Both the position numbers and the translations under genes were made by a program. The notes beneath the pieces were generated by a model that was not told the origin of the DNA, did not search any database, and saw nothing but the letters and a program-made list of their open reading frames with translations. Positions 1,512 to 49,581 of a stretch of 64,000 bases of DNA are shown one piece after another. Position 1 is the stretch's first letter. Each line of letters begins with the position of its first letter. The DNA comes from Syntrophobacter sp. SbD2. GTDB taxonomy: Bacteria > Desulfobacterota > Binatia > UBA9968. The DNA lies in assembly GCA_945889495.1 (NCBI GenBank), contig CAMDBU010000003.1, positions 6,665 to 70,664 of the forward strand, written 5' to 3'.

Positions 1512-3372
1512 GGCTTACTCCTGGCGCTTGGACATGCTGTTTATCGGTGGCCTTTTTTTGCAGCTCGATGAACTTCTCGTAAACTTTCTTGGCCATGGGC
1601 GCCGCCGCGTCGCCGCCATGGCCGCCATGTTCGACCAGCACCGCCACCGCCACCTGAGGCGATTGCACCGGCGCGTAGGAGACGAACCAGGCATGGTCGC
1701 GGGTGAACTGGCTCAACTGTTCACTCTTTAAGTAGGCGCCTTTCATTTCGATCACCTGGGCGGTGCCGGTCTTGCCGGCGATTTCAATCAACGGCGAGCG
1801 CGCCATGCCACCGGTGCCACCCTTGACGACATCGGCGAGCGCGTTGTGCACGCGATTGAGCGTATCCGGCTTCATTTCGATCTGGCGAATCAGCTCGGGG
1901 GCGAATTCGCGCACCGTGGCGCCATCCACCGATTCGACTTTGCTGACCAGCCGCGGGCGGAAAAGCTTGCCGCCGTTGGCCACCGCGGCCATCATGTTGG
2001 CCATCTGTAACGGCGTCACGGTGACATAGCCTTGGCCAATGGCGACCGAGAGAGTTTCGCCGGCGTACCAGGGCTGGCGGTAGCGTTTCATCTTCCATGC
2101 GGTGTCGGGAATCGTGCCGCTGCGCTCGTCGTCCAACTCGATGCCGGTTTTCTCACCGAGACCGAAGGCGCGCGCCCATTTGGCGATCTTGTCGACGCCC
2201 AACTTGTTGCCGAGCTGGTAGTAATACGTGTCACAGGAGATCACCAAGGAATGGTGCAAATTGACCGAGCCATGGCCGCCCTGTTTCCAGTCACGAAACG
2301 CTCGGTTGCCGAAATGGAAGAAACCGGGATCGGATATCGCCGCGTTGGGGTCGACCGCGCCCTCTTCGAGACCGGCGATGAACATGACGACTTTAAATGT
2401 CGAGCCGGGTGGAAATTGTCCCTGGGTGGCGCGATTGCTGAGCGGCCGCATGCGGTCGTTGATCAGCGCATTCCATTCAGGCCCCTTAATGCCTCGGGCA
2501 AATACATTGGGATCGAAGGCCGGCGTGCTGGCCAGTGCCAAGATCGCTCCCGAGTTGACGTCGATGGCGACGATGGTGCCTTGCTTGCCACTGAGCGCTT
2601 CGAACGCTGCCTGCTGCATTTGACGATCTAAGGTCAAGTGTACCGTGTAGCCCGGCACATCGTTGACCTGGTGCAGTACGCGCACGCGCCGGCCGAGCGC
2701 GTCGACTTCCACCTGCTGGCCGCCATGTTGGCCGCGCAAGACTTCTTCCCAGCGCCGTTCGAGCCCCGACTGGCCGATCTCATCGCCGACTAGATAACCC
2801 TGTTCTTTGTAATTTTTTAACTGTCGCTGATTGATCTCGCCCATGTAGCCCATAATATGCGCCGCCCCTGGACCGTCGGCATAATTGCGCCGCGGCCGGA
2901 TACGCAAGCTGACGCCGGGCAAATCGAGCTGATGGGTTTCCACCGCCACCACCGCGGCCCACTCGATGTCCTTGCCCAAGACGATTTCATCGAAGGCGGA
3001 GCGGCTCTTGTTATCTTCGTAGGTTTGCAACAGCTCGTCGACATCCCAGGTTAGCCGGCCGGCCAAAGCGCGCAATGTCTGCTCGGGGTCTTTAGTGTCT
3101 TCCGGGACGAAAATCAGATCGAAGGATGGCCGGCTATCGACCAACAACTCGCCGTTACGGTCGTAAATCATGCCCCGAGTGCCGGGCACGCGCTTGAGCC
3201 GCACCCGGTTGTTCTCCGACAAAAAGGTGTAGCGTTCGCCGTGAACCAGCTGCAGATAGACCAAACGCGCGGTCAAACCGATGAACACGATGGCGAGTAG
3301 ACCGTAAATAAAGGCGGCGCGCCGGCGAATCTCCGGAGCGCCATCCTGTTTATTGATTTCCAGTGTCGCCAT
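1501..3372 (-). CDS. mrdA: penicillin-binding protein 2 (peptidoglycan D,D-transpeptidase)
   Basis: STFK, SxN and KTGT transpeptidase motifs and an N-terminal membrane anchor; probable start is MATLEIN at 3372 (the ORF-track N-terminal extension is likely spurious). Confidence 0.9.
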   Translation of the reverse strand: MATLEINKQDGAPEIRRRAAFIYGLLAIVFIGLTARLVYLQLVHGERYTFLSENNRVRLKRVPGTRGMIYDRNGELLVDSRPSFDLIFVPEDTKDPEQTLRALAGRLTWDVDELLQTYEDNKSRSAFDEIVLGKDIEWAAVVAVETHQLDLPGVSLRIRPRRNYADGPGAAHIMGYMGEINQRQLKNYKEQGYLVGDEIGQSGLERRWEEVLRGQHGGQQVEVDALGRRVRVLHQVNDVPGYTVHLTLDRQMQQAAFEALSGKQGTIVAIDVNSGAILALASTPAFDPNVFARGIKGPEWNALINDRMRPLSNRATQGQFPPGSTFKVVMFIAGLEEGAVDPNAAISDPGFFHFGNRAFRDWKQGGHGSVNLHHSLVISCDTYYYQLGNKLGVDKIAKWARAFGLGEKTGIELDDERSGTIPDTAWKMKRYRQPWYAGETLSVAIGQGYVTVTPLQMANMMAAVANGGKLFRPRLVSKVESVDGATVREFAPELIRQIEMKPDTLNRVHNALADVVKGGTGGMARSPLIEIAGKTGTAQVIEMKGAYLKSEQLSQFTRDHAWFVSYAPVQSPQVAVAVLVEHGGHGGDAAAPMAKKVYEKFIELQKKATDKQHVQAPGVSRAD

Positions 3373-18817: not shown

Positions 18818-18882
18818 GTTTCGAGTTCCGAGTTTTGGGTTTCGAGTTATTAACGCGAAACTCGAAACCCGTAACTCGAAAC
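18818..18882. repeat. composite hairpin built from direct and inverted copies of gtttcgagtt
   Basis: gggtttcgagtt (18837-18848) pairs perfectly with aactcgaaaccc (18859-18870); an outer gtttcgagtt (18818-18827) pairs with aactcgaaac (18873-18882); the motif occurs three times in each orientation. Confidence 0.55.
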
Positions 18883-44653: not shown

Positions 44654-44726
44654 TTAGGCATGAGGCGCGAGGCGCGAGGCTTGAGTCTGACTTCGGACTC
44701 GCGCCTCATACCTTTCGCCTCGCGCC

Positions 44727-45155
44727 TTGGTATTTTCCATGGCAGACAAGATCAAACTAAGAGTGGTCACGCCGAGCCGGCTGGTTCTCGAAGAGGACGT
44801 CGACGAGGTCAGCGCGCCGGGGGAACTGGGCGAGTTCGGCGTGTTGCCCGATCATATTTCGTTCCTGTCGACTCTGGTGGCCGGCGAGATGAGCTACAAG
44901 CAGGGCGCCGCCCGTCATGCTTTGGTGGTCGGCGGCGGCTATGCCGAGGTTCTCGACAACGTCATGACCGTCCTCGCCTCGGCGGCGGAGTTCGCCGGCG
45001 AGATCGACAGCGCACGCGCCCAGCGCGCCAAGGAGCGCGCTGAGAAGCGCATGGGCGAAGTTAATTTCGATGACCCCGAATACCCGCAGTTGGAAGAAGC
45101 CCAGCGCCGCGCCCTGGCCCGGCTCCAGGTTGCTAGTAAAGAAACAAGAAGATAA
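44727..45155 (+). CDS. atpC: F0F1 ATP synthase subunit epsilon
   Basis: 142 aa with beta-sandwich and helical hairpin; last gene of the operon. Confidence 0.85.
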   Translation: MVFSMADKIKLRVVTPSRLVLEEDVDEVSAPGELGEFGVLPDHISFLSTLVAGEMSYKQGAARHALVVGGGYAEVLDNVMTVLASAAEFAGEIDSARAQRAKERAEKRMGEVNFDDPEYPQLEEAQRRALARLQVASKETRR

Positions 45156-45194: not shown

Positions 45195-46328
45195 ATGGCC
45201 GAAGCAGAAAAACAAGAACCCGTAATCACCATGTGGAGCAAGGAATTCACCTACGACCGCTGGATGAAGTCCAAAGGCATCCCAATCCACAAGGGTTATT
45301 TCATCCCCGATCTCCGCACCGTCGAGTTGGAATGGTGGGAAGAACGAGGCTGCAAAGCCGCCTTCATCCAGCTCTGGGGCCAGGAAGGCGTCAGCGCCGC
45401 CCGGGTCACCGAAATTCCTCCCGGCAAATCTTTGCCGCCAGTGAAGTTCGCCTTGGACGAAGTGGTCTACGTTTGCGCCGGCCGCGGTTTGACCACCGTC
45501 TGGTCTGGCGAAGGCAAGCCCAAGAAGAACTTCGAATGGCAAGAGCACTCGATGTTTCTCATCCCGCGTAACCACTGGCATGTGTTCAGCAACATGACCG
45601 GCGACAAACCGGTTAAGCTATTTCACTATAGCTATATGCCGATGGCGATGTCGGCGTTGCCCGAACCCGACATGTATTTCAACAATCCTTACGAATCGAA
45701 GATCACCGCCGATCAGGGTGACTTCTATTCCGAAGCCAAGATGGTTCAGGCCAAGGACGCCGACGAAGGCTTGGGCATGCGCGCTTTCTGGTACGGCAAC
45801 TTTTTCCCTGACATGCGTGCTTGGAACAAGCTCGACGCCAACGAACGGCGCGGCGCCGGCGGCAAGAGCGTGTTCATGCAGTTCCCCAACTCCGAACTCA
45901 CCGCCCATATGTCGGTGTTCGCGCCCAAGACTTATAAGAAAGCGCACCGCCATGGTCCGGGCCGGGCGATCATCATTCCCGCCGGCGAGGGTTACTCGAT
46001 TATGTGGGAAGAGGGCAAAGAGAAAATCGTTTGCCCATGGCATGAATGCAGCATGATCACGCCGCCAGACAAATGGTTCCACCAGCATTTCAATGCCGGC
46101 GGCGACATGGCGCGTTATTTGGCGCTCCATCCGCCCATGCAGTTCCATGGCCACGCGGAGAAGATCGAAGACCGGGCCAAGGATCAGATCGAGTATCCCA
46201 ACGAGGATCCGTTCATTCGTCAGAAGTTCGAAGAAGAGCTGGGCAAGCGCGGCATCGAGAGCATCATGCCGGCCGAAGCCTACTCCAACCCGGACTACGA
46301 CTGGTCCAAGGCGATGGGCAAGCAATAG
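45195..46328 (+). CDS. bicupin protein (gentisate/1-hydroxy-2-naphthoate dioxygenase-like); metal site only in the C-terminal cupin
   Basis: two cupin barrels; the C-terminal one carries AHRHGPGRAIIIPAGEGY … WFHQH metal-ligand motifs, while the N-terminal cupin lacks the HxH. Confidence 0.55.
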   Translation: MAEAEKQEPVITMWSKEFTYDRWMKSKGIPIHKGYFIPDLRTVELEWWEERGCKAAFIQLWGQEGVSAARVTEIPPGKSLPPVKFALDEVVYVCAGRGLTTVWSGEGKPKKNFEWQEHSMFLIPRNHWHVFSNMTGDKPVKLFHYSYMPMAMSALPEPDMYFNNPYESKITADQGDFYSEAKMVQAKDADEGLGMRAFWYGNFFPDMRAWNKLDANERRGAGGKSVFMQFPNSELTAHMSVFAPKTYKKAHRHGPGRAIIIPAGEGYSIMWEEGKEKIVCPWHECSMITPPDKWFHQHFNAGGDMARYLALHPPMQFHGHAEKIEDRAKDQIEYPNEDPFIRQKFEEELGKRGIESIMPAEAYSNPDYDWSKAMGKQ

Positions 46329-46355
46329 ATCATAATTAACCAGAAATTCGATTAC

Positions 46356-46385
46356 GGAATCCCCGCTCCAGCGAGCGGGGATTCC
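46356..46385 (+). terminator. perfect 12-bp GC-rich hairpin between the bicupin and eutA-like genes
   Basis: ggaatccccgct-ccagcg-agcggggattcc, followed by tgttatt. Confidence 0.45.
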
Positions 46386-46405
46386 TGTTATTGGGGTAGG
46401 ACAAA

Positions 46406-47950
46406 ATGGCGGACGCAATCCAGAGGCTACAGATGCACGACGATATTTACGATCACGACCATCCGGATAATTTCATTATCAAAGAGGATGAGATCGTTAC
46501 CGACATCGAAGGATTGGAGATGTTTTCGCTCAAAAGCGTCGGCATCGACATCGGCTCTTCGACTTCGCATTTAATTTTCTCGCATATCACACTGCGCCGC
46601 GAAGGCGCGGCCTTGTCGGGAAAATTCCGCGTCACCGGCCGCGAGGTGCTCTACCGCTCGCCGATCATGCTGACGCCCTATATCTCGGCGACCAAGATCG
46701 ACACCGACAAGATCAATGACTTCATCCACAACGCCTACAAAGAAGCCGGCTTGACGCCGGAGGATGTCGACACCGGCGCAGTGATCATCACCGGCGAAGC
46801 TTTGAAAAAAGAAAATGCCCAGCCGATCGTTGAGAACTTCGCCAAATACTCCGGTAAGTTTATCTGCGCGTCGGCGGGCCACAATCACGAAGCGTTGCTG
46901 GCGGCCTACGGCTGTGGCGCGGTGGATCTATCGAAGGGCGAGCATAAGACCGTGCTCAACGTCGACATGGGCGGCGGTACGACTAAATTTTCTTTGGTGG
47001 AAGACGGCGTGGTGACGCAGACCGCGGCGATTAGCATCGGCGCGCGCTTGATCGCCTACGACGAAAAGGAACAGATCACGCGCATTGAAGATCCGGGCCG
47101 GACGATGATGAAAGAGCTTGGCCATAAAGTCGAGATCGGCCAGAAAATCAGCGAGAAAATGAAAGAAGACTTCGGCGCCTATATGGCGAAGATTCTCTAC
47201 GAGGTCATCGAAACCGGGCCTAAATCGCCGATGGCGACCTCGCTCATGGTGACGCCGCCGTTCGTCAACTACAGCGGCTTCAAGCAGATACAGCATTTAG
47301 TTTTTTCCGGCGGCGTCTCCGAGCATGTCTACGACCGCGATGCGAAGTCCTATGGCGACATCGGCCCGGTGCTGGGCCGGAACATGCGCGATTATCTAAA
47401 AAAGCTGCCCAAGGATGTCCTGCGCGAACCCATCGAGGGCATTCGCGCCACGGTCATCGGCGCCGGCGAGTACACCATCCAGGCCAGCGGCAACACCAGC
47501 TACGTCTCCAATGAAAAAGCTTTGCCGGTGCATGGCTTAAAAGTTATCCAAGCACCGGTACGCGAAGGCGCATCGGTGGCCGACGGCATCAAACAGGCGC
47601 TGCGCAAGTTCGACCTCGGCTGTTTTACCTCCGGTCTGGCGTTGTCTTTAACCGTCAGCGGCGTACCCGACTATCAATCGGTGCGGCGCATCGCCGAAGG
47701 CGTCGCTGAGATCCTCAAGGGCGCCGACGACGCCAACTGCCCGCTCTACTTGACCTTGGACTTAGACATCGCCAAGTCGCTCGGCGCGATCCTGCGCGAG
47801 GAGCTGAAAATTACCCGCGACATCATCGCCATCGACGGCATCGAAGTCGGCGATTTGGACTACATCGACATCGGCGAATGCTTGGGCATCACCGAAGTCA
47901 TTCCGGTGACGGTCAAGTCGCTGATGTTTCCGACCACAGCCAGCGAATAA
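46406..47950 (+). CDS. eutA: EutA-like ASKHA-fold protein (ethanolamine ammonia-lyase reactivase homologue)
   Basis: …VGIDIGSSTSHLIFS…GAVIITGEA…LNVDMGGGTT… parallels the EutA motifs VGIDIGTTTTQVIFS / GAIIITGE / NIDIGGGT. Confidence 0.7.
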   Translation: MADAIQRLQMHDDIYDHDHPDNFIIKEDEIVTDIEGLEMFSLKSVGIDIGSSTSHLIFSHITLRREGAALSGKFRVTGREVLYRSPIMLTPYISATKIDTDKINDFIHNAYKEAGLTPEDVDTGAVIITGEALKKENAQPIVENFAKYSGKFICASAGHNHEALLAAYGCGAVDLSKGEHKTVLNVDMGGGTTKFSLVEDGVVTQTAAISIGARLIAYDEKEQITRIEDPGRTMMKELGHKVEIGQKISEKMKEDFGAYMAKILYEVIETGPKSPMATSLMVTPPFVNYSGFKQIQHLVFSGGVSEHVYDRDAKSYGDIGPVLGRNMRDYLKKLPKDVLREPIEGIRATVIGAGEYTIQASGNTSYVSNEKALPVHGLKVIQAPVREGASVADGIKQALRKFDLGCFTSGLALSLTVSGVPDYQSVRRIAEGVAEILKGADDANCPLYLTLDLDIAKSLGAILREELKITRDIIAIDGIEVGDLDYIDIGECLGITEVIPVTVKSLMFPTTASE

Positions 47951-47973
47951 GTTTGTTATTGGATAAATATTAC

Positions 47974-48010
47974 AAAAGGCTCCGCCCGCGCGGGGCCTTT
48001 TGTGTTTTTG
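47974..48010. terminator. bidirectional intrinsic terminator
   Basis: aaaaggctccgc-ccgc-gcggggcctttt hairpin with an A-run on one side and a T-run on the other, followed by ttttgtgtttttg. Confidence 0.8.
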
Positions 48011-48036
48011 TGTGGATTACACAGTCGGCACTATGC

Positions 48037-48176
48037 CCGGCAAGGGGCAAGCCCGCAGCAGTGAAGCCACCCGACTGTGCAATCGCAAAGTCATTCCCCA
48101 ACCGCAGTTTCCTAAAAACGTCGCTCAGAAGCAGAGGCCCATTTGGCTTCACTGCGGAGGGCTTGCCCCTTGCCGG
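48037..48176. repeat. 32-bp near-perfect inverted repeat (30/32) around a 76-nt spacer
   Basis: ccggcaaggggcaagcccgcagcagtgaagcc (48037-48068) versus ggcttcactgcggagggcttgccccttgccgg (48145-48176); lies in the 3' region of the minus-strand methyltransferase gene. Confidence 0.7.
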
Positions 48177-48189
48177 ATCGCTGGCGATT

Positions 48190-48741
48190 CTAACGAATTT
48201 CGAAAAGCATCACCGAATGGTCATGGACGAAAGTACCCGGCACCGACTCCTGGCGCGTCGGCACCCAGCCTTCCACCGGATAGTCGTGCGAGACCACCCG
48301 GGTGCCGGGTTTCAACTGGCGATCCATGATCGGCCGTAGCTTGGCATTGAACTCGGGCAGCATGTAAAGGGTCAGCACGGTGGCCGGCGACATGTCGACG
48401 GTGAAAGCGTCTTGAGCGCGGAACTCGACCAGGTGCTCGACCTTTTCGATATGGGCGTTGCTGCGCGCGCGGGCGACCAGGTCGGCATCGATCTCGATAC
48501 CGACGCCTTTGACGCCGTATTTCTTGGCCGCGTGAATGATGATCGCGCCGTCGCCGCTACCGATGTCGTAAATCACATCGCCAGATTTGACCCGCGCCAG
48601 TTCGAGCATGCGCTCGATCACCTGCGGCTTCGAGCGGACAAACGGCACTTCGCCGTCGGTCCACACCGCCACCGACGAGCCACAGCCGGACAAAATCAAT
48701 AAGCCGAAAATAATTTTCACTTGGTTTACGAGCTTCATCAC
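48190..48741 (-). CDS. class I SAM-dependent methyltransferase with lipoprotein signal peptide
   Basis: MMKLVNQVKIIFGLLILSGC lipobox; motif I VIYDIGSGDGAII. Confidence 0.7.
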   Translation of the reverse strand: MMKLVNQVKIIFGLLILSGCGSSVAVWTDGEVPFVRSKPQVIERMLELARVKSGDVIYDIGSGDGAIIIHAAKKYGVKGVGIEIDADLVARARSNAHIEKVEHLVEFRAQDAFTVDMSPATVLTLYMLPEFNAKLRPIMDRQLKPGTRVVSHDYPVEGWVPTRQESVPGTFVHDHSVMLFEIR

Positions 48742-48858
48742 TGGAGGTTATAAGCGGCCCCCAGCTTCGGGTCAATGCGCCGGCACCACGTTTGCCTTGA
48801 CATCATCGCCGGTTTGTTATGAACATCGGCAAAATTGCGATTGCGAGGAGGAATTCAC

Positions 48859-49581
48859 ATGGCCAGTTGGGACGATATTTTGACGCCGCGCGACAAGGAA
48901 GTGTTCGCGCTCTCGGGTTTCGGTAAAAAAGCCGGTCTCGGCCAACGGCCCGCGCTGTTGATCATCGACGTCAATTACAATTTCACCGGCGATAAACCCG
49001 AGCCGATATTGGAATCGGTGAAGCGCTTTCGCACCAGTTGCGGCGAAGAAGGTTGGGACGGCGTCCACGCGATTCGTGAGCTACTCGGCGAAGCGCGCAA
49101 AAAGCATATGCCGACCTTTTACACCACCGCCGAGGAGAACCGCGCCAATTCCACTGTGCTCGTCGGCGGCTGGGCGGCCAAAAGCAACCGGGCTACCGAA
49201 GACACCACTGAACAATGGGAAAAGGCCAACCAAATCGTCGACGAGATCGCGCCCCAGCCCGGCGACATCGTCGTGCGCAAGCAAAAGCCGAGCGCCTTTT
49301 TCGGCACGCCGCTCATGAGCATGCTGACCGAAGTTCATGCCGATAGCTTGCTAGTCTGCGGCACGACCACTAGCGGCTGCGTGCGCGCCAGCGTCATCGA
49401 TGCTTTTTCCTATAACTTAAAAGTTTCCGTGGTCGAAGAATGCGTCTTCGACCGCGGCCAGGCCTCGCACAAGATCAATTTATTCGACATGGCGATGAAA
49501 TACGCCGATGTGATTCCATTGAAAGAAGCGATTGATTACGTGCGCGCGCTGCCGAACAATCTCTACGCGCCGGCGCTGTGA
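48859..49581 (+). CDS. isochorismatase-family cysteine hydrolase
   Basis: …ALLIIDVNYNF… plus catalytic Cys context …LLVCGTTTSGCVRASVIDA…; GAGGAG RBS upstream. Confidence 0.8.
   Translation: MASWDDILTPRDKEVFALSGFGKKAGLGQRPALLIIDVNYNFTGDKPEPILESVKRFRTSCGEEGWDGVHAIRELLGEARKKHMPTFYTTAEENRANSTVLVGGWAAKSNRATEDTTEQWEKANQIVDEIAPQPGDIVVRKQKPSAFFGTPLMSMLTEVHADSLLVCGTTTSGCVRASVIDAFSYNLKVSVVEECVFDRGQASHKINLFDMAMKYADVIPLKEAIDYVRALPNNLYAPAL

Follow-up and report, generated by a model that had tools for sequence, protein, structure and literature searches.

In the Bacillus cereus group, the bcr1 repeat is a mobile element of ~155 bp that makes a 5-bp duplication, TTTAT; bcr1 is present in transcripts, and its compensatory changes point to a conserved RNA structure. 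REP/BIME sequences form 3′ stem-loops that protect the upstream mRNA. Their palindromic units of 20–40 nt have neither terminal repeats nor target duplications. They occur directly behind genes, in a preferred orientation, and depend on RAYT, an HUH enzyme, for their mobility. Correia and ERIC elements duplicate TA, not 5 bp. Prokaryotic MITEs as a class are shorter than 500 bp, carry terminal repeats of ~4–30 bp and, in young copies, direct repeats, and are intergenic and give rise to stable stem-loop transcripts (PMC10969869). Correia elements in Neisseria and ERIC elements in enterobacteria are small palindromic MITEs, co-transcribed with their neighbours, that form long RNA hairpins (PMC10969869). 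Messenger RNAs containing Correia elements are cleaved by RNase III, and ERIC elements at the 3′ ends of genes alter transcript levels via an RNase E site (PMC10969869).

The locus described here lies in a 64-kb stretch of DNA, analysed as a whole and referred to below as the window. The locus contains an inverted repeat with arms at 48037–48069 and 48144–48176. Each arm is 33 nt long, the two are complementary at 31 of 33 positions (94%), and they are spaced by 74 nt. The two positions that do not pair are G48055·A48158 and A48057·G48156. A query with the arm, allowing ≤3 mismatches, returned just its two sites in the 64 kb and nothing in 100 shuffles, and the 33-bp repeat is the longest inverted repeat of the window, with no other such repeat present. 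The initial annotation, made from the window sequence, had reported a near-perfect inverted repeat of 32 bp, far beyond chance; both statements hold, and the repeat is one base longer in each arm. The annotation had also suggested folding both strands. Over positions 47960–48200 the predicted fold of each strand is much stronger than that of shuffled sequence (z = -7.7 and -6.8).

The inverted repeat is situated between two convergent genes. Upstream is a EutA-like gene on the plus strand (46406–47950; Pfam EutA, 9e-121), followed by its intrinsic terminator at 47971–48014, in which a hairpin with a 15-pair stem (47971–48004) precedes a T-run. On the far side of the element from the EutA-like gene, a SAM-methyltransferase gene on the minus strand ends with its stop codon at 48190–48192. 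The repeat had been placed in the 3′ UTR of the methyltransferase gene, beside the terminator, and the gene and terminator coordinates agree with this placement. The terminator had also been called bidirectional. A simple terminator scan called 47971–48004 on the plus strand only; on the minus strand, with 4–5 T of 8 in the tail, termination is plausible but weaker. The convergent methyltransferase gene probably also uses the EutA terminator.

Comparison with related loci shows that the inverted repeat was inserted as part of a larger unit. The window locus is present, 100% identical, in metagenome contigs L001 and L002. A more distant relative, L049, in which the methyltransferase, EutA and isochorismatase are 90%, 96% and 98% identical to those of the window, also carries the element. 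In the next relatives, L050–L053 (methyltransferase 84%, EutA 89–93%, isochorismatase 96%), the gene order is the same but the ~178-nt element is missing, and only 5 nt separate the methyltransferase stop codon, TAA, from the same terminator. As the terminator is present and conserved in these empty-site relatives, it is older than the element and lies outside it. Written in the orientation of the window, the empty site reads ...CCTTTTGCG-TTTTA-ACGTATTTC, and the filled site reads ...CCTTTTGTG-TTTTT-[about 178 nt]-TTCTA-ACGAATTTC. The pentamers TTTTT and TTCTA are consistent with a degraded 5-bp duplication that takes in the stop codon. The putative left target-site duplication (48005–48009, TTTTT) matches TTTTA of the L050/L053 empty site at four of five positions, as does the putative right target pentamer (48188–48192, TTCTA), which contains the methyltransferase stop codon (CTA on the plus strand, TAG on the minus strand). 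From the empty site and the match to the family HMM described below, the whole inserted element extends from about 48010 to 48187, with the plus strand in the family reference orientation; its outer limits, set by comparison with the empty site, could be off by several bases, and the right end is ambiguous. The insertion kept the methyltransferase reading frame and stop codon intact.

The element belongs to a dispersed family. Using a pattern found in both arms of the window copy and in both arms of the L049 copy (AAGCCCNNNGCAGTGAAGCCA), we scanned the metagenome and obtained 54 contigs. By BLAST and an HMM built from full-length copies, about 26 of these contigs contain a total of about 27 true copies, and the remainder are chance matches. 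The family HMM matches the window at 48017–48182 (model positions 12–223 of 251, E = 9.3e-35). With this HMM, the 64-kb window yields no further copy, and 203 kb of other Binatia-like loci yield none at all. None of the metagenome copies adjoins a methyltransferase or EutA orthologue. Their flanking genes are unrelated and encode, among others, a glycosyl hydrolase of family 3, DUF4911, an alpha/beta hydrolase, an amidohydrolase, RecD2, ThiD, a cupin and a fragment of an rve transposase. Two copies are located on one contig, L088, and four contigs (L063, L074, L096 and L111) end inside the element, as expected of a repeat. The host contigs have a GC content of 54–64%, like the window, and the element itself is not AT-rich. 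For both the window and L088, the closest relatives of the flanking proteins are proteins from ‘Candidatus Binatia’ MAGs.

Full-length copies are 240–246 bp long (~241 bp) and end in an 18-nt terminal inverted repeat with the consensus CCCGGATTCCGCAGTTGA, which has 0–1 mismatch in the young copies L068, L105 and L088b. From left to right, an intact copy consists of the 18-nt terminal repeat, a variable spacer of ~20 nt, an arm of 31–33 nt, a left motif, a variable center of ~70 nt, a right motif, the complementary arm, a second spacer and the other terminal repeat. Ten intact copies are surrounded by 5-bp direct repeats, exact in five (TTCAA, CTTAA twice, TTCAT and GTTAG) and matching at four of five positions in the others. 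Orthologous loci provide the empty sites. Reached via the TopoVI-B gene, L114 reads GA-TTGAA-CGGCGG where L088 reads GA-CTTAA-[element]-CTTAA-CGGCGG, and the second L088 copy is likewise absent from L114, again with a precise empty site. The locus downstream of DUF4911 is filled in three lineages (L090/L067, L086 and L099) and empty in three (L121–L128). Orthologous loci fetched via the TopoVI-B and AsmA-like flanking genes contained only empty sites and added no further filled pairs. Across the copies there is no conserved reading frame, and the longest frames differ in strand and frame. We rejected a protein-coding reading in the window: the 60-aa ORF at 47970–48152 on the minus strand lacks conservation, and it overlaps the element as well as the terminator.

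The family is mobile, and its ~241-bp elements are MITEs by the criteria of PMC10969869, because they have 18-nt terminal repeats, AT-rich 5-bp duplications and precise empty sites, in addition to a length below 500 bp, dispersed copies and no transposase ORF. A MITE-like remnant had been one of the candidates in the initial annotation, which had added that many dispersed copies, marking a generic repeat, would refute its observation. About 27 copies in unrelated contexts, together with the terminal repeats, target-site duplications and empty sites, bear out the candidate, and the dispersed copies named as a refutation do exist.

The inverted repeat of the window is very probably the core stem of a decayed copy of this ~241-bp family. 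All parts of the copy can be followed on the plus strand in our alignment of the family (A3). The left terminal repeat (48011–48028, tgtggattacacagtcgg) is degenerate and matches the consensus at 11/18 positions. The left arm at 48037–48069, in which 48055–48057 (gca) corresponds to the GGA strand of the family's internal loop, occupies A3 columns 54–84, which are 96–98% paired in 24 copies. It is followed by the left-specific conserved motif (48070–48092, cccgactgtgcaatcgcaaagtc; A3 columns 85–107, mean pairwise identity 0.75), which resembles the right terminal repeat. What is left of the variable center (48093–48122) lacks 43 nt relative to full-length copies (A3 gap columns 130–172), a deletion found in the window and L049 only. 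The right-specific conserved motif (48123–48143, gctcagaagcagaggcccatt; A3 columns 177–200, identity 0.80) contains a 3-bp mini-hairpin, whose pair 190/195 is CG, UG or UA in different copies. In the right arm at 48144–48176, the other strand of the internal loop is 48156–48158 (gga); the arm is identical between the window and L049 over 31 aligned columns (A3 202–232), and the outermost bases, 48175–48176, differ (gg versus ac). A remnant of the right spacer and a truncated right terminal repeat complete the copy (48177–48187, atcgctggcga), with the outer ~7 nt missing. The left and right terminal repeats of the window are no longer complementary. With a degenerate left end, a truncated right end, 43 nt of the center deleted and unpaired ends, the window copy is an immobile relic. 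The decay of these ends is also the reason why the annotation saw no target-site duplication. We suggest that the element entered this site as a non-autonomous DNA transposon, at an AT-rich pentamer flanked by the terminator of EutA and the stop codon of the methyltransferase gene, in an ancestor shared by L049 and the window genome.

The annotation had further pointed to an 8-bp pairing that competes with the left arm, so that two mutually exclusive folds might form. The pairing exists and is longer, with 13 of 14 positions complementary between 48015–48028 and 48071–48084. It is specific to the window, with a z-score of -4.4 there and +0.4 in L049, and is not significant in any other copy; two alternative folds are thus not supported. 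The pairing arises because the left terminal repeat and the internal left motif resemble each other, and we regard it as incidental.

Which part of the element is conserved? The best-conserved part of the family is the internal stem with its two adjacent motifs, not the terminal repeats. Mean pairwise identity in A3 is 0.88–0.90 for the stem arms and 0.75–0.80 for the flanking motifs, compared with 0.60 for the terminal repeats and about 0.5 for the spacers and center; most copies were found via the arm pattern, which inflates the arm values, and the following correction is partial. Considering for each copy only the arm that was not used to find it, the arms are 90% identical to the consensus, versus 74–75% for the terminal repeats and 70% for the center. 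The window and L049 are the sole orthologous filled pair free of this ascertainment, having been found via protein. Overall their elements are 81% identical, the arms having changed very little and the middle a great deal: 59/62 arm positions are identical, compared with 40/68 in the rest of the element. At the 4-fold sites of the three flanking genes, 249 of 329 positions (76%) are identical, significantly fewer than in the arms (p = 3e-4). Since the insertion, the stem has changed more slowly than synonymous sites, and the transposition signals have decayed. It seems that the stem has been maintained by selection after the transposon ends were lost.

The same data bear on the explanation that survives best after a selected stem, namely that the window holds a dead MITE copy in which the long stem no longer does anything and the arms look conserved through descent, through ascertainment by the arm, or through homogenisation against other copies. 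This reading would account for the decayed ends and deleted center, and for an element that contains no promoter or terminator of its own; it also draws on the fact that most copies were recovered by their arms and that one pair is ascertainment-free. In that unbiased pair, however, the arms exceed the 4-fold sites in identity and the rest of the element does not. The terminal repeats, which transposition requires, are less conserved than the stem. Conversion between the two arms would preserve their complementarity, but not their sequence. We consider a neutral relic somewhat unlikely. The pattern of substitutions within the stem, analysed below, bears on it as well.

The substitutions have the character of a single-stranded structure. 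The paired fraction of cells in the A3 stem helices, 96–98%, falls to 32–43% in controls in which the partner strand is slid. Eight pairs show double compensatory changes, a level of covariation reached in 0 of 500 shuffles. Nearly all copies have a 3x3 internal loop in which GGA faces GGA, with G·A and A·G oppositions in 23/23; in the window, the middle position of this loop is now a C-G pair. One-sided transitions, read on the window plus strand, give G·U in 25 cells (13 pairs) versus A·C in 3 cells. A mutational strand bias is not supported as the source of this excess, as transitions in non-stem columns number 157 versus 144 and show no strand asymmetry. The G·U asymmetry has a Fisher p of 1e-4 by cells and 0.10 by columns, and a binomial p of 0.02 by pairs; because the copies are related by descent, cell counts overstate the independent events, and by columns the asymmetry reaches only p = 0.02–0.10. 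The plus-strand stem is more stable than its complement in 23/23 copies, by a mean of 8.5 kcal/mol, and the window hairpin has values of -61.9 kcal/mol on the plus strand and -61.4 kcal/mol on the complement. Between the window and L049, paired stem positions differ only at A3 columns 56 and 63, both C/U opposite G; the further differences are one internal-loop position and the outermost bases of the arms. A neutral relic is consistent with an asymmetry that is marginal by columns, but it would not be expected to confine the paired-position differences of the window and L049 to C/U opposite G. The pattern fits a single-stranded RNA or, less likely, a single-stranded DNA; a protein that reads the duplex would not yield it.

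This last point concerns the protein-binding palindrome proposed in the initial annotation. If the arms were inverted sites in double-stranded DNA, such as subterminal sites for a transposase or sites for a host factor, they would co-vary under one protein, and mirrored compensatory changes would be expected here too. The symmetric position of the arms, about 35 nt from each end, would also suit such sites. The conserved GGA/GGA mismatch is difficult to reconcile with this idea: with GGA in both arms, the two sites differ as read on the duplex. Position 63/223 is T opposite G in 19/23 copies. A duplex-reading protein would be indifferent to strand, and one-sided changes are compatible with G·U over A·C by 25 to 3. 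Moreover, the arms remain conserved in copies that are unable to transpose. Variation confined to G·U therefore disfavors the palindrome, which we judge to be improbable.

A hairpin in single-stranded DNA, for instance on the lagging-strand template, recognised in the manner of REP/RAYT, IS200/IS605 ends or integron attC, would explain the strand specificity of the structural signal. DNA hairpins tolerate G·T pairs, and in most cases the gene upstream has its coding strand on the plus strand of the element. The terminal repeats and 5-bp duplications, however, are the signature of a DDE enzyme, with cut-and-paste or copy-paste movement, rather than of single-strand transposition by an HUH enzyme, no HUH or RAYT gene is seen near any copy, and a loop of 74–117 nt is unfavorable for extrusion. 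We find this explanation highly doubtful. Scarcely credible is a structured 3′-UTR element or sRNA gene that evolved locally at the methyltransferase or EutA locus: its position between the methyltransferase stop codon and the terminator and its very stable predicted fold are outweighed by its absence from the locus in the next relative (L050–L053), by the copies at about 26 loci that are unrelated and show terminal repeats and duplications, by the lack of an Rfam match, and by a family structural signal that is antisense to the methyltransferase mRNA. The structured 3′-UTR or sRNA that the annotation had listed first is supported in part, insofar as the stem has the features of a selected structure in one strand; that strand is the plus strand, not the one of the methyltransferase mRNA.

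We return to a stem selected as RNA. All copies are intergenic. A gene can be identified on the 5′ side of the element at 13 independent loci; it runs in the direction of the element's plus strand at 11 of them and is divergent at the other two. By our own binomial estimate this corresponds to about p = 0.02, for a count based on heuristic ORF calls of which ten are confirmed by Pfam. The co-oriented upstream genes often end 1–7 nt before the element. The orientation bias could result from an asymmetric target, as the AT-rich pentamers often overlap stop codons, or from selection. In L089 and L088b the copy fills the entire gap between convergent genes. No promoter-like or terminator-like signal was found inside the element; one 9/12 match in L088a is not conserved. 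The stem does not have the form of an intrinsic terminator either, with a loop of 74–117 nt and no T-run after either arm on either strand.

Based on the covariation, the G·U-compatible changes and the placement of the copies, we suggest that the stem is active as a stem-loop of a single strand, most likely of RNA, when transcription continues out of the upstream co-oriented gene. In such RNA it may protect the 3′ end against exonucleases or be a site of processing or binding. At the window locus, the sense strand of the family lies behind the strong EutA terminator, a point against this reading. The complementary hairpin belongs to the methyltransferase 3′ UTR and precedes the shared terminator, and a transcript from either gene would contain a hairpin of about -60 kcal/mol. 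That the stem is a functional RNA hairpin under selection is the reading we favor, though at somewhat less than even probability. More tentatively, we propose that the MITE family is the carrier of a structured-RNA module, composed of the 31–33-bp stem, the invariant GGA/GGA loop and the two motifs, which is under purifying selection in the host. Transposition would then have spread a ready-made 3′-end hairpin, as a stabiliser, a processing site or a site for protein binding, behind many unrelated genes of Binatia-like bacteria, and the window copy would be a domesticated one that acts on the methyltransferase and/or EutA transcripts.

The family was presumably moved in trans by a DDE transposase. 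In the IS1380 family, ends begin with CC and direct repeats are 4–5 bp long. The ISEcp1 IRL is CCTAGATTCTACGT, flanked by AT-rich 5-bp repeats (PMC6061673). Compared with the family end CCCGGATTCCGCAG, it is identical at 8 of 14 positions, and five of the six mismatches are transitions, a weak likeness for a 14-mer. This 8/14 match to the ISEcp1 IRL, the CC at the outer ends of the family and its AT-rich duplication of 5 bp make an IS1380-like enzyme a lead for the partner. No transposase with matching ends was found: in the window and about 780 kb of loci, the only matches to the terminal repeat are MITE copies.

Other collections were searched for the element. Viral contigs contain no match to the terminal repeat and two chance matches to the arm pattern, and BLAST of the window element and of a full-length copy against plasmids gave no match. 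In Rfam, positions 47000–49500 of the window returned only weak matches to the terminator at E <= 10, and twelve loci with full-length copies returned only an unrelated TPP riboswitch at E <= 1. The arm 18-mer CCGGCAAGGGGCAAGCCC gave 46 single matches, scattered across the phylogeny, in reference-genome contigs, at chance level and with no arm pairs, for a pattern that is too specific (its outer ‘CC’ is not conserved in the family). A literature search by sequence string returned no match to the element, and searches by sequence string and keyword returned no described mobile elements of Binatota, an uncultured phylum. The family thus appears to be a new and apparently undescribed MITE family of Binatia-like soil bacteria, for which we provide consensus ends, duplication and architecture.

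Several consequences follow. A puzzling 33-bp palindrome is explained as the relic of a transposon. The family inserts at or beside stop codons and affects metagenome assembly, as contigs break inside the element. Its less usual feature is an internal module of stem and motifs that is better conserved than the signals for transposition, persists even in copies that are dead, and has a strand-specific variation like that of RNA. If the RNA-module reading is true, the family would clearly exemplify, for bacteria, how a mobile element can distribute a selected RNA module into the 3′ regions of many genes.

How does the family compare with described systems? It resembles MITEs in general in its length of ~241 bp, its terminal repeats of 18 nt, the fading of its 5-bp direct repeats with age, lack of an ORF, strictly intergenic location, AT-rich targets and very stable predicted fold. 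It differs from them in that its sequence matches no described element, that it is not AT-rich and lies in GC-rich contigs, and that its internal stem and motifs surpass the terminal repeats in conservation. Like REP/BIME, the family is intergenic, located just downstream of genes and biased in orientation. We rejected membership in REP/BIME, as the family has a unit of 241 bp, ends in terminal repeats and makes 5-bp duplications, and no HUH gene occurs among the flanking genes examined. An IS200/IS605-derived PATE, which would have subterminal hairpins but neither terminal inverted repeats nor a target duplication, was rejected as well, since the family has both of the latter. By analogy, the mechanism described for Correia and ERIC elements would be the one proposed here for the family stem. 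There is no sequence relationship, and their hairpin is formed from the terminal repeats, whereas that of the family is formed from an internal, separately conserved stem with a GGA/GGA loop. The bcr1 repeat, which differs in phylum, sequence and size, is the closest precedent for a MITE with a selected RNA fold.

At the DUF4911/RNase R locus, alleles carrying the element can be compared with alleles that are empty. In the filled alleles (L090:6098-6350, L086:999-1250 and L099:788-1040, all metagenome contigs, as are the other L-numbered loci), the stop codon is followed by the element after 5-7 nt. In the empty alleles (L121:12963-13076, L124 and L126), by contrast, the same place is occupied by approximately 65 nt that cannot be aligned among one another. 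The right junction, TTGAA-ATCCCGCGGATTCC, is common to filled and empty alleles. The unalignable stretch together with this common junction indicates that the left flank was lost or replaced after insertion.

Four metagenome contigs (L063, L074, L096 and L111) end within the element, indicating that the family disrupts short-read assemblies of its host organisms. On L060, a full-length copy (2697-2942) lies 2 nt from a second, 5'-truncated copy in the same orientation (2945-3132, positions 63-251 of the family HMM). Two explanations fit the pair: a tandem or nested insertion, or an artefact of assembly.

An integrase-core fragment (rve/rve_3) of an IS3/IS481-type transposase, on the plus strand at L068:1726-2319, lies 44 nt upstream of an intact copy that is among the youngest of the family (L068:2361-2602). 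Because the ends expected for such a transposase do not match those of the MITE, the fragment probably belongs to an IS that is merely adjacent. On L076, the copy at 2747-2992 is on the same strand as a TPP riboswitch (2594-2702, minus strand; Rfam RF00059, 73.5 bits), which lies approximately 45 nt downstream of it. This MITE therefore landed in the gap that separates a gene from the operon next behind, which the riboswitch controls. An independent copy on the minus strand (L111:4750-4862) lies approximately 50 nt past the stop codon of L111:4252-4701, a plus-strand gene that is distantly paralogous to the methyltransferase gene of the window (47% identical), in a convergent layout like that of the window. 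The resemblance is probably coincidental.

The window itself contains three further long intergenic hairpins (327-395, 18825-18882 and 44663-44727), each located between genes or directly past a stop codon. Their arms of 29, 24 and 23 nt are 83-90% complementary, enclose short loops and are composed of short internal repeats such as GGAGT, TTCGAG and GGCGCGA. They show no sequence kinship to the MITE or to one another, and may represent a U-tract-poor terminator style of the window organism.

The EutA-like gene (Pfam EutA, 9e-121) and its preceding context span 45195-47950 of the window. No ethanolamine-lyase genes were seen in the gene neighborhood listed for L001, one of two metagenome contigs on which the window locus is 100% identical. 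The gene directly follows the ATP synthase operon along with a cupin gene; given that the protein's annotation is ethanolamine-ammonia-lyase reactivase, this setting is unusual.
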